Source: an uncultured Bacilli bacterium (GTDB lineage: Bacteria; Bacillota_I; Bacilli_A; RF39; UBA660). From it: a DNA stretch of 51,083 bases. The stretch lies in NCBI GenBank assembly GCA_947624175.1, contig CANQJD010000003.1, forward strand, positions 1-51,083, written 5' to 3'. Shown piece by piece: positions 18,544 through 35,195 of the stretch (the first letter of the stretch is position 1; each line of letters opens with the position of its first letter). Both the position numbers and the translations under genes were made by a program. The notes beneath the pieces were generated by a model. That model was not told where the DNA came from, did not search any database, and saw only the letters and a program-made list of their open reading frames with translations.

Positions 18544-19473
18544 TCAATCTAAATTCCTTAAATCATAATAATTCTTTGGAAATCCCATTCTATCTAATAC
18601 TTTATCAACACTAATTGTATGCAAGTTTAAACTTAAATTTTCTACATTATGTCTTATTTCTTCCATTAAATTAGCAAATTCTTCTTTTGATAACATCTGT
18701 TTCATAATAATAATTAAAGCAAATGAATCTTCTTTACCATAGATATATTCATCATCCATAATTGGAATATTTAATAATTTATGATACTTATTATCATCTA
18801 TTCTTCTTTGAGTTTTATTCTCAAAAACAATATCTTCATGAGCACATAAATTACGATAATTAGAAAGAATTGTTAAATAATTAGTTAATACATCAACATC
18901 AAGTTTATATATATCAGCAATTCCCATTTGGTCTTCTTTCTTTAATATCGAATATAACTCTCCAACTATTCCAAATGATAATACTTTAACTAATACCCAC
19001 AGTGGAATATATCCATAGTTATTAACATAATGCATTGTAGCCGAATGCTGGGTAGCATTAACATTAATCTGTCTTTTCATTTTTCTTAATATATCATTAA
19101 CTTGTTTTGTTTTTTCTTTATTAGTAGTAAAGTTTTTAGGAGTTAAATAATCTTTTTCTCGATAACCATATTTTAATGATAATTGATAACTAATAATTGA
19201 TTTAATATTATTTTCAATTACTAATATATTTTTAAATAATATATTTCTAAATGTTCTATCAAATAAAAATAAACTATATAATTCTTCAAAAGTAGTTCCT
19301 TCAATATATCTTTTATCAACACTACTTCTCATGAACAAATGTCTATATCCATTTAAAAAGAAATAGTTTTCACGCATTAATACTTCTTCAGTATATTCAG
19401 GATTATTAATAACTAAACCCTTACTTTTTAATATATCTATTTGTTCAACTAATGTCTTAAACTCCTTTTTCAT
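18544..19473 (-). CDS. Abi_2 (AbiD/AbiF-like) HEPN protein
   Basis: EQIDILKSKGL, TFEELYSLFLFDRTFR, IPLWV, RNLCAH (Rx4H). Confidence 0.88.
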   Translation of the reverse strand: MKKEFKTLVEQIDILKSKGLVINNPEYTEEVLMRENYFFLNGYRHLFMRSSVDKRYIEGTTFEELYSLFLFDRTFRNILFKNILVIENNIKSIISYQLSLKYGYREKDYLTPKNFTTNKEKTKQVNDILRKMKRQINVNATQHSATMHYVNNYGYIPLWVLVKVLSFGIVGELYSILKKEDQMGIADIYKLDVDVLTNYLTILSNYRNLCAHEDIVFENKTQRRIDDNKYHKLLNIPIMDDEYIYGKEDSFALIIIMKQMLSKEEFANLMEEIRHNVENLSLNLHTISVDKVLDRMGFPKNYYDLRNLD

Positions 19474-19577
19474 TCTTTATCTCTCCTACCTTTATAAGTA
19501 TATCATACTTTTCCTAAAAAAATATGTTTTTTTTATGAAATTTTCGTATTTTTTTCAAGTAAAAAGAAAAAGACTAA

Positions 19578-19883
19578 TTAATAGTCATAATGTAATCTAT
19601 TACATAATTTAATAGATTGTCTTTCACTTATTATCCTTTTCTTAAAACTTTGTTCTATATAAAAGTCAATTAAATTAACTTTCATAAGAGTTTTAATTTG
19701 AATATCTTTTCTTTTATCTATATTAGTATAATTAGCAATATAAACTAGTTCTAATAATTCATAACTATCATTAACTAATCTATTCCTAAGTTCAAAATAT
19801 TTTCTTGGATAATTAATTAAATAATCATCAAGTATCATAATAAATTCTTTAATATATTTAGCAATAGTAAACTTATCATTCAT
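19578..19883 (-). pseudogene. avd: DGR accessory variability determinant (Avd, four-helix bundle), C-terminally truncated
   Basis: NYPRKYFELRNRL...LLELVYIAN...RKDIQ...IIS pattern; the final helix ending in GW is replaced by HYDY*. Confidence 0.7.
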
Positions 19884-20235
19884 TTACAATACTAGATATA
19901 GTTTCTAGTATTCTATCTAATTTTTCAGGACTTATTTTTTTAACCTTTTCAACTAAATCTTTATAATTAGTATCTTTTTCATATTTTTCTTTTCCTAATC
20001 TTACAAATTTTAAATATTTATTTAAGTTCTTAAAGTTATTATTGTTATCTTCTCCTATAACTTCATAACTAATCTTATTTTCTTCTAATTTGTTTATTAC
20101 TTTATTAAGGGCTGATTTAGGAAACCCTACTTTATTATTTATAATTTGATAGTTAAGAAGATAATAAAGAATATAAGAATCATCGTCATAAGTACTATAA
20201 AAAGTACCGCTTCTTCTTATCTTAATAACATTCAT
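19876..20235 (-). CDS. MutS domain I-like small protein (DGR MSL-type accessory)
   Basis: SGTFYSTYDDDSYIL and KVGFPKSALNKVINKL match MutS_I motifs; overlaps the avd start. Confidence 0.72.
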   Translation of the reverse strand: MNVIKIRRSGTFYSTYDDDSYILYYLLNYQIINNKVGFPKSALNKVINKLEENKISYEVIGEDNNNNFKNLNKYLKFVRLGKEKYEKDTNYKDLVEKVKKISPEKLDRILETISSIVNE

Positions 20236-20333
20236 ATAACTATAAAACTATACCTTTCTTTATTATTTATATAGTTAAACTTTTAATCAAAACCTATTTC
20301 TACTAATGCTTAATTCCCTTGATATATAAGCCT

Positions 20334-20363
20334 GTTTCCGGACGTCCTTGCCGTCCAGGAAAC
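20334..20363 (-). other. GC-rich hairpin directly 3' of the DGR target gene
   Basis: GTTTCC-T-GGACG-GCAAGGA-CGTCC-GGAAAC with no U-tract on the sense strand. Confidence 0.7.
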
Positions 20364-20364
20364 T

Positions 20365-22011
20365 CTATGCCATTTCCGGGTAATATGGAGTTGTCTCAGT
20401 TCCTTCTCCTTGTGTTATTTTTATCTCGGATATTAGATTAACAGACGGACGAACGCCGAGGTTGCCGCCCACGTTGCTACGGTGCACACTACCAGTCGTA
20501 TTCAAGTTAGCAACATAAATAGAACTGGTAGAGGAGGGAGACAACAAACATCCTCCATTACTTGGCATACTATTCATCCAACTTGATGATTTTATTGTAC
20601 TAAAATCTTTTAATTGGGTTTCCCAATTACTACTTTCCGTACTAAATCCATAATCACTTGGATACATTAAGGCTACTTTTCCTTCCCATATTGCTTTATT
20701 TCCTGCCCATACTCGACAATTTGGTGTTTCTGAAAAAGTTAAATCACTTCCTGTATTAGTTGATGGTCCATTCCCATCAGCACACTCACTTACTGCTCTT
20801 TCATTTGCATAGGCTTCCTTTGGTGTATCAAGTACCATACTAGATGAAGTTAATGATGTTACTGTTCCCAAATAATATTTTGTTTCTTCTATCATACTTA
20901 AAGTATCACCTTTTAAGTAACTTAAATATCCTTTATTTGCTTCTCCTTCGGTTTCATCTTCTTTTGTATTTAACCAATATTGTAATCCCGCAGTTGCCCA
21001 ATCATTATTATCTGTTCCACTTACTTTATTATTCCAATAAGCAGTAGTATCCATACTTTTTATATTATAAGTTGTGCCTTCTACTTCATATGTTTCAGGA
21101 AATATTCCACTTAATCTCTCATTTCTTACGATTTTTAAGTGTTCTTTACCACTTTCATCTTTGAATACTCCGATTATTCTCCATTTTTCACAATTAGAAC
21201 TTGCTGTTTCATATGTTGTTCCTTCACTACAATTAAAATAGATATAATTCTTTATTCCATCATTTCCAGAGTATCGATATTCTCTTACTTCGTCATCTTT
21301 AGAAGTTGTTGGAGTATTATCAGCCTTTACTCCAATTACTCCTCCTGGTTGACCTATTGTATCTTTTACTACATCAGTTCCTATTTCACTTTTTATACTT
21401 TTTTCATTGAAATCTCCAGTTACATTTACCTTGATACTTGCAAAAACATCATTCCATTCATCCATATCATAGTTTGCATCACTTGTATTTCCTATTATTG
21501 TTTTACTTGATATCCACATATATAATCTATAGGTTCTTGTTATTTTAGAGTTAGTTCCTGCTGGTATAGTGTTTACATATATTCCTTTTCCGGCTGCTAA
21601 TCCTGTATAACTTCCTTTTTCTATTAATACTTCTTCTTGGTTTTCATCTTTAACTTCTACTAATTTAAATGCTAATAAGTTATCTTCTATTCTCGTCCCT
21701 CTCGTCTCATGTGGTTCTCCATGTTGGATGTCTATTTCATACCAAATTGGTTTACTATAGGTATTTTTTCCTTCGATTGTAAACTCAAAATAATCATTTG
21801 CTCCTGGTCCTTCACTTGGCATAGCATTTTCAATTGTTAAAGCAGGGGTTTCTTTAAACTTCATGTAGATATCTCCCGTTACTAATATTTGATTATCAGT
21901 TGTTCTTGAATAATTCCATATTGCAAATGTTACTCCTAATACGGCAACTAATATGATTGCACTTATACTGGCTATTATTATACCTTTCTTTTTACTGCTT
22001 TGATTGTTCAT
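20365..22011 (-). CDS. Surface protein with SipW-type signal and C-terminal CLec-like variable domain (DGR target)
   Basis: N-terminal KKK-hydrophobic-GVTFAIW; WRIIG, KIVR, GKVALMYPSDY, LLSP...GVRPSVNL...GEGT...PY. Confidence 0.78.
   Translation of the reverse strand: MNNQSSKKKGIIIASISAIILVAVLGVTFAIWNYSRTTDNQILVTGDIYMKFKETPALTIENAMPSEGPGANDYFEFTIEGKNTYSKPIWYEIDIQHGEPHETRGTRIEDNLLAFKLVEVKDENQEEVLIEKGSYTGLAAGKGIYVNTIPAGTNSKITRTYRLYMWISSKTIIGNTSDANYDMDEWNDVFASIKVNVTGDFNEKSIKSEIGTDVVKDTIGQPGGVIGVKADNTPTTSKDDEVREYRYSGNDGIKNYIYFNCSEGTTYETASSNCEKWRIIGVFKDESGKEHLKIVRNERLSGIFPETYEVEGTTYNIKSMDTTAYWNNKVSGTDNNDWATAGLQYWLNTKEDETEGEANKGYLSYLKGDTLSMIEETKYYLGTVTSLTSSSMVLDTPKEAYANERAVSECADGNGPSTNTGSDLTFSETPNCRVWAGNKAIWEGKVALMYPSDYGFSTESSNWETQLKDFSTIKSSSWMNSMPSNGGCLLSPSSTSSIYVANLNTTGSVHRSNVGGNLGVRPSVNLISEIKITQGEGTETTPYYPEMA
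20437..20550 (-). other. Putative DGR variable region (VR) and IMH
   Basis: 38 consecutive codons with no third-position A, rich in NNC/NNT, ending GGCGTTCGTCCGTCT. Confidence 0.75.
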
Positions 22012-22060
22012 TTTATTATCTCCTTCCTCTAGGGTTTTGCCCCTTTACTTTGATATTTTT

Positions 22061-22089
22061 ATTATAAAATATTTTTAGGATTTTAGCAA
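22061..22089 (-). promoter_or_regulatory. Sigma-A promoter of the DGR target gene
   Basis: TTGCTA-N17-TATAAT on the minus strand, GGAAGGAG RBS downstream. Confidence 0.6.
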
Positions 22090-22108
22090 GTTTTTTTTTA
22101 AATCCTCA

Positions 22109-22170
22109 TGTGAAAAAAGACATATTTAAAATACGTATTATAAATACTGCATTTTATATGTCTTTTTACA
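22109..22170 (-). terminator. Long imperfect hairpin, probable terminator
   Basis: TGTAAAAAGACATAT...ATATGTCTTTTTTCACA arms with inner AAAATGC/GTATTTT and GTATT/AATAC pairing. Confidence 0.6.
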
Positions 22171-22192
22171 TCTTTTATTATAATTTAAATAA

Positions 22193-22288
22193 TTAAAGGT
22201 AGTAACCCCCCCCCATAGTTGACAAATCGTTAACTTTTGTGGCAAATTTATCATTTGTATAATTTAAATTCAATTCATAATTTGTCAT
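22193..22288 (-). CDS. Unannotated 31-aa sORF containing a G9 tract (MTNYELNLNYTNDKFATKVNDLSTMGGGYYL)
   Basis: AAAGGAAG RBS; promoter TTGATT-N17-TACTAT with extended TG at 22322-22350. Confidence 0.45.
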   Translation of the reverse strand: MTNYELNLNYTNDKFATKVNDLSTMGGGYYL

Positions 22289-22350
22289 ATGGGGTCACTT
22301 CCTTTATCTTATTACTATTTAATAGTATCATATCTAATGGAAATAATCAA

Positions 22351-22995
22351 CTATTTCTTTTTAGATTTTTTATCTTTTTTCTTTTCTTTCGTTTCAATTA
22401 ATTTAGCTTCTTCAACTACATCAGCATCTTGAACATGAGATTCTTTTTTAACTTCCGTTTCAAATACTATTCTTTCTTTTCGACTAAAAACATATCCAAA
22501 TATTTCTACAATAGAATAAACCATTAATACTAAACCATAGGCTTTAAAGGCTAAATTAGTTCTTAAGATAGTATATAACCCACCTGCTATTAATAATAAG
22601 GAAAGTATTAATAGAACAAAGAAATTAGTATCTTTCTTTTCTAACATTAAAGCATTAGCAAGTCTAGTTATACCACATATTAATATCCAACCACCAATTA
22701 TAAATCTAATTAAAGTTTCAATTACTCCACCTAAAAAGATAAAGATTAAACCTACAACAATCATTAGAATACCTATAACCATACCTATAGATGATGTTGT
22801 ATTATCCTTTTTTACTTCAATATAGTTTTTAATACAACTAAATACTCCAAGTAAAGCTATTAAACCACCTATTACATAAGTTACTACTAAAACTACTGCT
22901 TCAGGATTAGAATAAATAATAGCTCCTAATATAAATAACACAACTGAACTAATTAATAGCATAACATTCGTATATGCACTTACTTTTATTTTCAT
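22351..22995 (-). CDS. DUF308/HdeD-like membrane protein
   Basis: Six hydrophobic helices in a repeated pattern, charged tail. Confidence 0.75.
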   Translation of the reverse strand: MKIKVSAYTNVMLLISSVVLFILGAIIYSNPEAVVLVVTYVIGGLIALLGVFSCIKNYIEVKKDNTTSSIGMVIGILMIVVGLIFIFLGGVIETLIRFIIGGWILICGITRLANALMLEKKDTNFFVLLILSLLLIAGGLYTILRTNLAFKAYGLVLMVYSIVEIFGYVFSRKERIVFETEVKKESHVQDADVVEEAKLIETKEKKKDKKSKKK

Positions 22996-32412: not shown

Positions 32413-33034
32413 GAACTAAACCTGCATCAAAGTAATAAATTTTATCACTTAATTCTTCTAAATCATCTTTAATATGACTAGATAGAATAATCGTTTTTCC
32501 AGAATTAGCAAGTTCTCTTAAATAAGATTTTATTTTTAAAACAGTATCATTTTCAATGCCATTAAAGGGTTCATCAAGAATAATTACTTGACTATCTTCC
32601 ATAACGGCTTGAGCAATTCCTAATTTTTGTTTCATACCAAGAGAGTATTTACTAAATTTCTTATCTTTTTCAGTTATTAAATTAACTTTTTCTAAAGTAT
32701 CTAAAATTTCTTTATCACCAATTTCTTTTTTAATATTAGCAAGTAGTTGTAGGTTTTCATAACCAGTTAAGTTAGGAAAAAAGGCTGGTTTTTCAATTAA
32801 AGCTGCAATATGTTTAGGAACTTCCAAGTTAGGGTTTATCTTTACTCCATCATAAAGTATTACTCCACTGGTTGGAACATATAAACCACATAGCATTTTT
32901 AAAAGAACACTTTTGCCACTTCCATTCCGACCGGCTAAACCATAAATTTTACCACTTTCAAAGGTCATATTAACATCACTTAAAATAACATTATCTTTAA
33001 AACTTTTAGATACATTTTTAACTTCTATTCGCAT
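32405..33034 (-). CDS. ABC transporter ATP-binding protein
   Basis: GRNGSGKS, YSLGMKQ, LDEP, SSH. Confidence 0.95.
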   Translation of the reverse strand: MRIEVKNVSKSFKDNVILSDVNMTFESGKIYGLAGRNGSGKSVLLKMLCGLYVPTSGVILYDGVKINPNLEVPKHIAALIEKPAFFPNLTGYENLQLLANIKKEIGDKEILDTLEKVNLITEKDKKFSKYSLGMKQKLGIAQAVMEDSQVIILDEPFNGIENDTVLKIKSYLRELANSGKTIILSSHIKDDLEELSDKIYYFDAGLVHE

Positions 33035-33043
33035 ATTCTCCTC

Positions 33044-33970
33044 CTAATTATTTTTTTCACAAGAAATTATTAATTTTTCTTTATTACGATAACATAAATA
33101 AACAATGAAACTTGTTATAAGTACTAATGAGATAACATAAATAAAGTAAACTAAGACTCCTGGCTCTAAATTCATTCTAAATACTTCTAATATTTTAAAT
33201 AGTTGATTATTATACATACTTTTGCCAGTTGCATCATATAACTTTTGCCAAATTATGCCACCCGGGACAATTTCTAAAAATAATTCTATAGCAATAACTA
33301 AAAGAAACGATTCTATCACAGCTAAATAGTAATTATGTTGATATCTTACAACTATTAAACCTAAATTTAAATAAGTTACGGAATATAAGAAAACACTTAT
33401 AAGATTGGTAATAATTAATAGTATAGGTGATGCATAAACAAAACTTTCAAACATATAACTATTTTTAGCAACTTCATAATTAAAATCCGAACCAATTAAA
33501 CAAACTATAAAAATTAAAAGCATGATTAAGGGCCAAAACCAAACTGATTTAAAAACACTTTTAAATATTCTTTTTAGGAAATCTTTATAGTTTTCTCTTT
33601 TTAACATTAAAAGGGCTGTTCGATTTTTTAAAATACTACTAATTTCTTTTAAAGTGATAATAAATAACACAAGTCCAAATATTTCACATACATATAGTAA
33701 ATCCCCATAGGCTATAATATCTAATTTATAATAAAAATCATCTGCATTATAATCAAAAGTTCCATTTTTAACTTCCATACAAACATCATATAATTCTGAT
33801 GATGCATATTTATTTGTATTGTCAAATACACTTGCACACGTATTATTTAAAAGTCTTTTTTCATTTTTAATTCCATTATTAACATCTATTGCTATTTTTG
33901 CAACTAAAAGTAAACCAAAGAGTAAACATAATATTGTTAACCAATTTTTCTTAATAAATTTCATAAGCAT
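33044..33970 (-). CDS. ABC exporter permease-like membrane protein, copy 2
   Basis: Multiple TMs, near-duplicate of 34187-35092. Confidence 0.72.
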   Translation of the reverse strand: MLMKFIKKNWLTILCLLFGLLLVAKIAIDVNNGIKNEKRLLNNTCASVFDNTNKYASSELYDVCMEVKNGTFDYNADDFYYKLDIIAYGDLLYVCEIFGLVLFIITLKEISSILKNRTALLMLKRENYKDFLKRIFKSVFKSVWFWPLIMLLIFIVCLIGSDFNYEVAKNSYMFESFVYASPILLIITNLISVFLYSVTYLNLGLIVVRYQHNYYLAVIESFLLVIAIELFLEIVPGGIIWQKLYDATGKSMYNNQLFKILEVFRMNLEPGVLVYFIYVISLVLITSFIVYLCYRNKEKLIISCEKNN

Positions 33971-34123
33971 CTACCTTATAAATTAAGTATAGCATATGTC
34001 ATATATATAAACAATATGATTTTTTAAAAAATTAATAAAACTCACTAATAAAAATTCGTTTCATTAGAAAAATGACTCTTTTTCAATTAGTTTGATGCAC
34101 ATATATTTTTTTAATTTGTAACA

Positions 34124-34177
34124 TTACCTACAAATATCTTTAAAACTTTTTGATACATTTTTAACTTCTATTCGCAT
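34124..34177 (-). pseudogene. Truncated duplicate of the ABC ATPase 5' end
   Basis: MRIEVKNVSKSFKD-ICR* with the same GGAGGAG RBS as 33034. Confidence 0.8.
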
Positions 34178-34186
34178 ATTCTCCTC

Positions 34187-35092
34187 CTAATTATTTTTTT
34201 CACATGCAATTATTAATTTTTCTTTATTACGATAACATAAATAAACAATAAAACCAGTTATAAGTACTAAAGATATAACATAAATAAAGTAAACTAAAAC
34301 TCCTGAATCTAAATTTATTCTAAATACTTCTAAAATTTTAAATAATTGACTATTATACATATCTTTACCAGTTGCTTTGTATAATTGTTGCCAAATTATA
34401 AAACCAGGTACAACTTCTAAAAATATTTCAATAGCAATAACTAAAAGAAACGATTCTATTACAGCTAAATAGTAATTGTGTTGATGTCTTACAACTATTA
34501 AACCTAAATTTAAATAAGTTATAGAATATAGAAAAACACTTATAATATTTAAAATAATAAAGAGTACAGGTGATGCATAAAGAGAATTTGTATTTGGCTT
34601 ATAATTAAAATCTGAACCAATTAAACAAACTATAAAAATTAAAAGCATAATTAAAGGCCAAAACCAAGCTGGTTTAAAAACACTTTTAAATATTCTTTTT
34701 AGAAAATCTTTATAGTTTTCTCTTTTTAACATTAAAAGGGCTGTTCGATTTTTAAAAATACTACTAATTTCTTTTAAAGAGATAATAAATAATACAAGTC
34801 CAAATATATAACATGCGACTAGTAAACTTGAGTATGCTATATCTAATTTATAATGAAAATTATCTGAATAATAATCATACGTTCCATTCTTAAATTTCAA
34901 ACAATCATTATATAATTCTGATGATGAAGAAATATTAGAATTATTAAATGCATACGAACAAGCAGTATTTAAACTTTTATCTTCATTTTGAATTCCATTA
35001 TTAATATCTATTGCTACTCTTAGAACTAAAAATAAACCAAAGAATAAAAATATTATTGTTAACCAATTTTTCTTAATAAATTTCATAAGCAT
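34187..35092 (-). CDS. ABC exporter permease-like membrane protein, copy 1
   Basis: Multiple TMs, near-duplicate of 33044-33970. Confidence 0.72.
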   Translation of the reverse strand: MLMKFIKKNWLTIIFLFFGLFLVLRVAIDINNGIQNEDKSLNTACSYAFNNSNISSSSELYNDCLKFKNGTYDYYSDNFHYKLDIAYSSLLVACYIFGLVLFIISLKEISSIFKNRTALLMLKRENYKDFLKRIFKSVFKPAWFWPLIMLLIFIVCLIGSDFNYKPNTNSLYASPVLFIILNIISVFLYSITYLNLGLIVVRHQHNYYLAVIESFLLVIAIEIFLEVVPGFIIWQQLYKATGKDMYNSQLFKILEVFRINLDSGVLVYFIYVISLVLITGFIVYLCYRNKEKLIIACEKNN

Positions 35093-35195
35093 CTACCTTT
35101 ATAAATTAAGTATAACATATGTCATATATATAAACAATATGATTTTAAAAAAATTCAATGAATTAAATCAAATAATTTCATTGAATTTAGTATTT

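Follow-up and report, generated by a model that had tools for sequence, protein, structure and literature searches.

The window (the whole stretch of DNA that was analysed, 51,083 nucleotides) contains, at bases ~19560-22350, one copy of a chromosomal DGR module, all parts of which lie on the minus strand. The largest gene of this copy (20365-22011) encodes a target protein of 548 amino acids, with a membrane anchor or signal-like segment at its N terminus and a putative DUF6273-like domain at its C terminus, and harbours a variable region (VR) whose core of ~99-105 nt (20440-20545) bears a signature of adenine mutagenesis and has no cognate template (TR). One nucleotide past the target stop is a GC-rich hairpin of the DGR target-recognition type (20333-20363), which has an 11-pair stem with one bulge. 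This is followed by msl (19876-20235), an intact accessory ORF of 119 codons, and by a truncated avd gene (19578-19883), whose product of 101 amino acids ends in CNRLHYDY. The last four codons of avd (HYDY) and its stop derive from foreign sequence. They are found at a presumed deletion joint, a 9-nt microhomology ATAGATTAC (19584-19592) that is common to avd and to the tail of a small post-TR ORF, orf88, and a remnant of the orf88 3' end with a weak hairpin and a T run (19560-19583) forms the downstream end of the inserted cassette. Upstream of the target is a small leader ORF of 31 amino acids (22193-22288), which contains nine consecutive G on its sense strand (22206-22214; C9 on the plus strand). 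A preliminary description of this DNA had reported the co-oriented target, the GC hairpin, a MutS_I-like gene and an Avd-like gene, and each was recovered at or near the place given to it. It had also reported neither TR nor RT in the 51 kb, and indeed the window has no RVT_1 match and no second copy of the VR stretch.

The cassette is flanked by a gene for a DUF308 membrane protein (22351-22995) on one side and by an Abi_2-family gene (18544-19473; Pfam E 1.8e-42), a core gene of the genus that lies outside the cassette, on the other, both also on the minus strand. Full-length Abi_2 DNA is found in 21 of 22 genus relatives. At the Abi_2 locus of nine relatives there is no target, MSL, Avd or RT in any case, and in three of the nine DUF308 directly adjoins Abi_2. 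Since these two core genes are adjacent in three relatives, the comparison indicates that the cassette was inserted between them.

The target belongs to a large family, for which tblastn gives 56 matches spread over 35 of the 77 contigs of the genome. The closest paralogue, on contig C28, was considered as a hidden second cassette and rejected, as it has an ordinary terminator past its stop, no hairpin and no msl. In a profile search the window target protein itself has no Pfam match, DUF6273 included, and the matches to DUF6273 among its relatives are weak (7 of 12, the best at E 0.0032, with matches up to E 1 counted); clusters of DUF6273 are listed in the Atlas at 0.97. The earlier label of a ‘CLec-type’ target is hence supported only indirectly, through the relatives, and not by the window protein. 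An AlphaFold (AF2) model of the C-terminal 219 amino acids, made from 12 sequences, was unusable (pLDDT 49.7) and was dropped from the fold search. DUF6273, a C-type-lectin-like domain, is described in reports on gut phages as a DGR target (PMC10743442, PMC11792537) and, as is presumed here, the VR is placed in those accounts at the C-terminal end of the DUF6273-like domain. Unlike the phage targets, the window protein is chromosomal and membrane-anchored and belongs to a large paralogue family, some members of which match DUF6273 weakly.

The position of the leader ORF is conserved in the cassette of a sister species (G018). The genome has 31 G/C runs of at least 7, of which 15 lie 110-220 nt upstream of target-family genes, and a 1-nt deletion at 22206 is present in two contigs of the metagenome run X5. 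These sequence patterns make the G9 tract a candidate for on/off switching of the target gene by strand slippage. Promoter-like sites in 19400-22400 (22, against 18.8 +/- 4.8 in shuffles) were not informative and the sole terminator-like match in the same interval is on the wrong strand.

Taken by itself, the 101-residue protein scores below the cut-offs of both Avd family models (NF033474 and PF22296), with E 0.0077 for Pfam bAvd and E 3e-5 for NCBIfam DivGenRetAVD (24.3 bits against a cut-off of 80). Its relatives nevertheless place the product of 19578-19883 in the Avd family, as all 17 aligned members match DivGenRetAVD (best 1e-13). Full-length relatives are encoded between msl and RT, and the two closest have 112-113 amino acids. 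In the window protein the conserved C-terminal segment L.INKMLyKW is replaced by HYDY, so that it is not full length and would fall short of a complete four-helix bundle, and the abrupt end of Avd remarked upon in the preliminary description reflects the loss of this segment and the four foreign codons.

The MSL protein matches Pfam MutS_I at E 0.013, as do six of the 16 members of its family (best 5.4e-8), and its structure model (pLDDT 94.7) shows an N-terminal half resembling MutS domain I and, after it, two long helices. Among the Foldseek matches listed for this model against the PDB, all are MutS-family chains (best E 5.6e-4), and the model superposes on 1wbd_B with an rmsd of 1.2 over 59 columns at 24% identity. 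On the strength of the model, MSL is thus predicted to have the fold of the MutS mismatch-recognition domain I. When the PDB was searched with sequence profiles built from the Avd and MSL alignments, the top-ranking entries, an isoprenoid synthase at E 1.1 and PYL3 at E 0.095, were not meaningful. DGRs with an MSL have been described as ‘Architecture D’ (Wu et al. 2018, PMC5758913), and Msl-containing DGRs are also described from Bacteroides (bioRxiv 10.1101/2024.11.15.621889). As in the window, these accounts have a small MutS-domain-I-like protein encoded with Avd, and the 119 amino acids of the window MSL fall within the published range of 112-283. In one relative (G019:C43) RT and MSL are fused.

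The GC hairpin is well supported by folding (-10.9 kcal/mol, z = -5.17; none of 200 shuffles folds as well). Of the 13 target 3' ends examined, 11 have a hairpin past the stop, and an alignment of those 11 shows compensatory changes in eight of the 11 predicted pairs; the loci examined around the two ends without a hairpin are also without an MSL, Avd or RT match. In the DGR of Bordetella phage BPP-1 a GC-rich inverted repeat is the target recognition element, for which the published consensus has a 7-10 bp stem, a 4-nt GRNA loop and a distance of 4-34 bp from the VR (PMC3240598). The window hairpin is likewise GC-rich and just 3' of the VR gene, with a conserved structure and a varying stem sequence. 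It differs from that reported for BPP-1 in having 11 pairs with one bulge and a loop region of ~7 nt around GCAA, GTAA or GCGA, and in lying ~75 nt past the VR core rather than 4-34 bp (PMC3240598). The small hairpin with a T run that had been noted at the Avd stop (GACTA-TTAAT-TAGTC) is present, but is weak by folding energy (-2.4 kcal/mol, z = -1.96; 11 of 200 shuffles fold as well). Its significance lies in homology and not in energy.

The window encodes an MSL with avd in a DGR cassette, and has neither an RT nor a TR/VR pair that differs at adenines alone. In the whole genome, RVT_1 matches were found only on contigs C19 and C1. The C19 enzyme proved to be a maturase of the group II intron type, scoring 357 bits where the cut-off is 300, which leaves the RT on C1 as the sole one of DGR type; C48 has just a 23-aa RT fragment. 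MSL and Avd are confined to the window contig (C3) and C1, and C1 carries the one intact DGR of the genome, complete with RT, Avd, MSL and a template, TR1. The genome-wide search for a DGR-clade RT, and for a TR differing from the VR at adenines alone, that the preliminary description had proposed thus ends with a single RT, on C1, and with no TR that fits.

What the cassette once looked like can be seen from its relatives. Cassettes of the genus run from target through hairpin, msl, avd, RT and TR to the small ORF, and the window copy differs from such MSL-containing DGRs in being without RT and TR. The RT adjoins MSL at 19 of 22 MSL loci outside the window, the other three being weak MSL matches (30-39% identity). 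The sister-species locus G018:C2 is complete, with target, MSL, Avd (112 aa), RT (368 aa), TR and a small ORF, orf83, in that order. TR and RT are thus linked to the target family, right behind Avd, and the absence of such a linkage would have counted against the earlier assignment. The TR and VR of this locus differ from each other at 12 adenines and one other base. The window MSL is 97% identical in amino acids to its G018:C2 counterpart, and nucleotide identity to this locus is 95-100% per 100 nt from ~20300 down to 19592, where it falls to 47-50%.

Beyond this break the sequence resumes elsewhere in a cassette of the same kind. Homology to the genome's own C1 cassette, at ~80% identity between the two copies, ends at 19600, and window bases 19564-19600 are 97% identical over 37 nt to C1:51375-51411, with 33 consecutive identical bases against C1:51379-51411. 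This C1 segment is the tail of orf88, the small ORF past the TR of the intact C1 DGR. The 9-nt ATAGATTAC is found in both parents, one copy spanning avd codons 94-96 and the other being 24 nt short of the orf88 end. Pfam searches of orf88 and orf83 gave nothing, and a relationship of orf88 to MSL was rejected (hhalign probability against the MSL alignment 1.5%).

The intact G018 cassette, the end of identity at 19592, the orf88 tail and the ATAGATTAC at the joint together make it very probable that ~1.6 kb, comprising the 3' end of avd, the RT, the TR and most of orf88, was deleted from the window cassette, freezing the last VR variant. A deletion of this sort was the first of two explanations offered in the preliminary description, and the comparison of relatives that it proposed bears it out, with an intact orthologue, a loss of homology at 19592 and a resumption in the tail of the post-TR ORF. 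The orf88 tail at the joint matches that of the C1 lineage and not that of the G018:C2 orthologue, hence the direct parent of the window cassette is not in hand, and the joint could have arisen by an exchange between two cassettes instead of a simple deletion.

The VR itself differs at 11 of 26 adenine columns that are invariant among TRs, compared with one of 38 invariant non-adenine columns (Fisher p = 9e-5), and so carries the marks of past adenine-directed mutagenesis. None of the four TRs compared matches at the remaining bases, the non-adenine mismatches numbering 19 for TR1, 16 for TR2 of C48, 16 for G018:C2 and nine for G008:C3. TR2 was rejected as the cognate TR on account of its 16 mismatches together with three indel columns. 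The 3' end of the lost TR is predicted to read GGCGTTCGTCC, followed by AGNCCTTTAT.

It is conceivable, if improbable, that the cognate RT and TR persist, be it on a short contig left unbinned, on a mobile element or in an intact structural variant, with the VR still being diversified in some cells. With a completeness of 95% and no contig below 2702 nt, the assembly leaves room for a short RT/TR contig that escaped binning, and intact variants of degenerate loci were reported from long reads in another bacterium (PMC10907252). Moreover, three contigs of run X5 and one of X6 match both VR flanks and skip the core 20458-20530; these were placed at 88% likeness with a shorter side of 21-23 nt (47 in one X5 contig), a type of joint that often stems from other organisms or paralogues, and they hint weakly at further VR variants or at paralogues rather than amounting to evidence. 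Against persistence, the window contig runs unbroken through msl and avd into unique flanks, which makes it less likely that the assembly holds a second copy nearly identical to this one, and BLAST of the VR against 22 genus relatives gave no fitting TR. When the metagenome collection was scanned for the pattern of the predicted TR end, two places were hit (L043 and L044), neither with a DGR protein match, and these were dismissed as chance.

A quite improbable reading is that the shortened cassette is a kept state. Deletions between short repeats that take away RT and TR would then recurrently fix a phase-variable surface protein in a useful variant, the msl gene and the shortened avd would be retained to act with the C1 RT or with an RT and TR from a mobile element, and cassettes would move between species and sites as units. 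The last of these elements is supported by the dS of msl-avd, which is 0.10-0.13 as against 0.61-0.71 for core genes.

The second explanation in the preliminary description, a satellite target of a distant DGR, would have the C1 DGR still rewriting the window VR in trans, with the local hairpin as recognition element. A distant DGR does exist, and it is apparently active, since TR1 and its own VR differ at 22 positions, all of them adenines; the window has also kept the conserved hairpin, and trans service of degenerate loci is documented elsewhere (PMC10907252). However, homing has to leave a VR identical to its TR at every non-adenine base, and TR1 has 19 non-adenine mismatches to the window VR over the 99-nt core, as opposed to none to its own VR, which renders service in trans very unlikely. 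In addition, BLAST aligns just 64 nt of TR1 with the window VR, and the GC-rich VR 3' end GGCGTTCGTCCG is different from the TR1 3' end GCGGTGCGGCCA.

A mis-join of two repeats as the origin of the joint at 19592 is extremely unlikely, even in a fragmented genome (77 contigs) rich in paralogous repeats, given that the shared sequence is just 9 nt, that the two cassette copies are only ~80% identical, that the sequences on either side come from one kind of cassette and are correctly ordered and oriented, and that a Logan contig from a different assembler bridges the joint without a difference. This 399-nt contig spans 19253-19651 and comes from X1, the only run in which such a bridging contig was seen and which may be the source sample, so it is perhaps not independent of the assembly. 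Runs X5, X6 and X7, likewise used as contigs, have little or no cover of the stretch 19584-19727, which says nothing either way.

In the proposed mechanism, the intact module would have consisted of a promoter region with the G9 leader ORF, the target with its VR, the GC hairpin, msl, avd, RT, TR, orf88 and a terminator. The RT of such a module, with Avd and probably also MSL, copies the TR RNA into cDNA with misincorporation opposite adenines, and the cDNA then replaces the VR, guided by the VR 3' end and the hairpin. Deletion between the two copies of ATAGATTAC, in avd and near the end of orf88, would have removed ~1.6 kb. Lacking its own template and enzyme, the VR would no longer be rewritten and its last variant would be fixed, with only ordinary mutation left. 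As to the order of events, we infer that the deletion came after the insertion.

Decay of this kind has already been published in other bacteria and the present case raises no new question on DGR mechanism. ‘Degenerate’ DGR loci are described from the 7.95-Mb genome of the purple sulfur bacterium Thiohalocapsa PB-PSB1 (PNAS 2024, PMC10907252) where, as here, a complete DGR locus (one per class) is reported beside loci in which RT, TR or an accessory gene is missing or broken. The window differs from PB-PSB1 in belonging to a 1.5-Mb low-GC gut bacterium, in its targets, in that the deletion ends and the 9-nt microhomology are resolved, and in that the trans test fails. It offers a clean and traceable case of DGR death, in which the parent architecture, the two deletion ends, the microhomology and the frozen, adenine-scarred VR are all visible. 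A single 1.5-Mb genome holds a live cassette and a second, differently decayed one, and together these show that DGR cassettes turn over quickly in this gut lineage, through gain, exchange between species and loss. In annotation, a target with MSL and Avd and without RT should be read as a remnant and not as a DGR, and counting non-adenine mismatches provides a simple test of trans service.

The deletion is probably recent because the reading frames of msl and the shortened avd are still open, with neither stops nor frameshifts, and both genes are presumed to be functionless passengers by now. Their open frames and their dN/dS against G018 (0.14 for msl and 0.39 for the shortened avd) would still allow for continued use. 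The divergence of the two genes from G018 may mostly predate the deletion.

The window carries a degenerate DGR locus, the gene order of which, read along the minus strand, begins with a DUF308 membrane-protein gene (22351-22995). This is followed by an intergenic region that includes a leader ORF of 31 aa containing a nine-G run (22193-22288), the target gene (20365-22011, 548 aa), a GC-rich hairpin starting 1 nt past the target stop codon, the MutS-domain-I-like gene msl (19876-20235, 119 aa), a shortened avd, termed avd' (19578-19883, 101 aa), an Abi_2-family gene (18544-19473, Pfam E 1.8e-42) and, last, an HtrA-like protease gene. All the co-oriented elements named in the preliminary description, the target, the hairpin 1 nt past its stop and the MutS_I-like and Avd-like genes, are present. 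Its statements that the 51 kb hold neither a reverse transcriptase (RT) nor a template repeat (TR) also stand, as a genome-wide RVT_1 search gives matches on contigs C19 and C1 only, and no second copy of the GC-richer stretch 20440-20545, the variable region (VR) of the target, is found within the window. At 32992-35162 the window also contains two tandem copies of a ~1.1 kb unit with 84-91% identity.

The 101-aa protein matches NCBIfam DivGenRetAVD (E 3e-5) and Pfam bAvd (E 0.0077) below the model cut-offs, and its assignment as Avd is supported by its family, in which 17/17 aligned members match DivGenRetAVD (best 1e-13) and full-length relatives lie between msl and a reverse transcriptase. 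The conserved end L.INKMLyKW is missing from avd', which closes with four foreign codons (HYDY) and a stop. The 119-aa protein matches Pfam MutS_I weakly (E 0.013; 6/16 relatives match, best 5.4e-8), its structure model is confident (pLDDT 94.7) and every PDB row listed for the model is a MutS chain, such as 1wbd_B with an rmsd of 1.2 over 59 columns. Invariant residues in the family alignment include G10 and F12, which we take to align with the MutS mismatch-binding motif G-x-F-Y-E, the Glu not being kept. The ORFs of msl and avd' are still open, with dN/dS values of 0.14 and 0.39, respectively. The 119-aa protein is the accessory protein described as MSL by Wu et al. 2018 (PMC5758913). That MSL and RT are directly linked in function is supported by a single 493-aa ORF in a relative (L021:379-1860, G019:C43), in which a DGR-type RT is fused to an MSL-like C-terminal domain. 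Another relative's cassette (L015, G013:C82) has two Avd-like genes, 774-1124 and 1844-2149, either side of msl.

The intact form of this layout is found on C1, where a complete DGR comprises a target, hairpins, msl (128 aa), avd (113 aa), an RT of 366 aa whose translation contains LGAMTSQ and YMDD, a template repeat (TR1, C1:50905-51020) and an 88-aa ORF, orf88. Between TR1 and its own VR there are 22 differences, every one of them at a TR adenine. A genome-wide search finds MSL and Avd nowhere besides the window and C1, and the RT on C19 scores as a group II intron maturase (357 bits against a cut-off of 300). A second decayed DGR, at C48:10395-11729, has kept its target and hairpins, the C-terminal 23 aa of RT and a template repeat (TR2), with msl, avd and most of RT deleted; TR2 and its VR show 19 A and 7 non-A differences and 3 indel columns. 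PMC10907252 already describes degenerate DGR loci that accompany a single complete locus in each class. New in the window case are the fully resolved deletion and the small-genome gut host; the locus adds no new mechanism.

MSL homologues occur in 24/61 genomes searched (the present one counted) and in 19/22 genomes of the same genus. RT adjoins MSL at 19/22 distinct non-window MSL loci, the other three being weak MSL matches of 30-39% identity. The closest relative, on contig C2 of the sister species G018, combines an MSL of 97% aa identity with Avd (112 aa), RT (368 aa), a TR with 12 A and 1 non-A differences from its VR, and an 83-aa ORF, orf83. Linkage of TR and RT with this target family is seen in related genomes. 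Small ORFs of 83-88 aa accompany DGR cassettes in 12/23 genus genomes (e.g. L002:2668-2934, G000:C1:51135-51401), behind the TR in most matches and directly before msl in three (G022, G006, G015). They match no Pfam family and are a candidate further DGR accessory gene, of which only the last codons are left in the window.

Identity between the window and the G018 cassette, taken per 100 nt, is 95-100% over msl and avd and 47-50% past base 19592. Window 19564-19600 matches C1:51375-51411 at 97%, with 33 consecutive bases identical, and this part of C1 is where orf88 ends, comprising its final codons, hairpin and T run. Exactly at the joint lies ATAGATTAC, common to avd of the window lineage and the orf88 tail. 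The missing piece, ~1.63 kb in C1 coordinates, covers the last ~14 avd codons, RT, TR and most of orf88, and would have been lost between two copies of ATAGATTAC, one in avd and one in the orf88 tail. The small hairpin in which Avd had been seen to end abruptly thus belongs to the orf88 tail, and stands there because the cassette's own downstream end has been brought next to avd; it is weak (-2.4 kcal/mol; 11/200 shuffles as good). A 399-nt contig of sequencing run X1, which may be the source sample of the assembly, spans 19253-19651 with 0 differences. The tail of orf83 in G018 is unlike that at the joint, so the G018 cassette is not the direct parent. A caveat is that the joint may derive from exchange with a C1-type cassette, its tail matching orf88 of C1 and not orf83 of G018.

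Homing overwrites the whole VR, and a served VR must therefore match its TR wherever the TR base is not A, an identity test also used in PMC10907252. Over the 99-nt core, the window VR fails this test against all four TRs compared, with 17 A and 19 non-A mismatches to TR1, 15 A and 16 non-A plus 3 indel columns to TR2, 14 A and 16 non-A to the G018 TR, and 15 A and 9 non-A to that of G008:C3, a further relative. The proposed check for a TR differing from the VR only at adenines finds none among these, nor does BLAST of the VR against 22 genus relatives yield a fitting TR; a scan of a metagenome collection for the predicted end of the lost TR gave only 2 matches, both chance. The VR differs at 11/26 columns with A in all four TRs and at 1/38 columns with a shared non-A base in all four (p = 9e-5), a pattern indicating that it was once DGR-written. 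A less likely alternative is that an intact variant or the cognate TR lies in unbinned sequence of the organism, the bin being 95% complete and holding no contig under 2.7 kb. The option of a satellite target of a distant DGR is made unlikely by the 19 non-A mismatches to TR1. The other option offered, a deletion that froze the last variant, is supported by the missing ~1.63 kb, the joint at 19592 and the lack of a fitting TR.

The hairpin past the target stop has a folding energy of -10.9 kcal/mol (z = -5.17; 0/200 shuffles as good). A strong hairpin directly past the stop is found in 11/13 target 3' ends examined, with compensatory changes in 8/11 predicted pairs in the alignment of those 11, and the loci examined around the two ends that lack it contain no MSL, Avd or RT match. 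The hairpin fits the DGR target-recognition element as outlined in PMC3240598, although here the stem is longer and bulged and the GCAA-type loop is larger.

The window cassette is an insert between DUF308 and Abi_2. Abi_2 DNA is full-length in 21/22 genus relatives (81-87% identity), and among nine relatives' loci examined DUF308 directly adjoins Abi_2 in three (G007, G010, G004), and none of the nine matches target, MSL, Avd or RT there. Abi_2-family genes are usually read as mobile phage-defence genes; here, the gene is a conserved core gene. Abi_2 adjoins the HtrA-like gene in 9/9 loci. The orthologous G018 cassette occupies another site, between a mreC/mreD-like flank and cmk-alaS, and its flanks map to other contigs of the present genome. 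Simple Nei-Gojobori estimates put dS between the two species at 0.61-0.71 in Abi_2, HtrA and alaS and at 0.62 in the mosaic target gene; msl has a value of 0.10 and avd one of 0.125. The msl and avd values are far under those of the core genes, and sharing of msl-avd therefore took place well after the species split.

The target protein has a Lys-rich and hydrophobic N-terminal segment. Its description as CLec-type has indirect support, in that weak similarity of the C-terminal domain to DUF6273, a C-type-lectin-like DGR target domain (PMC10743442, PMC11792537), is seen in 7/12 relatives (best E 0.0032), and DUF6273 clusters are listed at 0.97 in the Atlas; the window protein itself gives no DUF6273 match and the structure model of the domain failed (pLDDT 49.7). 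The family is large, with 56 tblastn matches on 35/77 contigs of the 1.48 Mb genome. Many contigs start or stop inside its genes, and the paralogues probably cause much of the assembly fragmentation. The closest paralogue, on C28 (80% aa), has the same VR 3' end and is followed by an ordinary terminator, with no hairpin. A group II intron RT/maturase lies at the start of C19 (L001, G000:C19:1-1214), directly upstream of another target-family gene.

Runs of 7-9 G or C occur at 31 places in this 26%-GC genome, window 22206-22214 included, and 15/31, with the G strand as sense strand, sit 110-220 nt upstream of target-family genes, one of which is the target of the intact C1 DGR. Two contigs of sequencing run X5 carry a 1-nt deletion at 22206. 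These features suggest that the surface-protein family as a whole undergoes phase variation by strand slippage.
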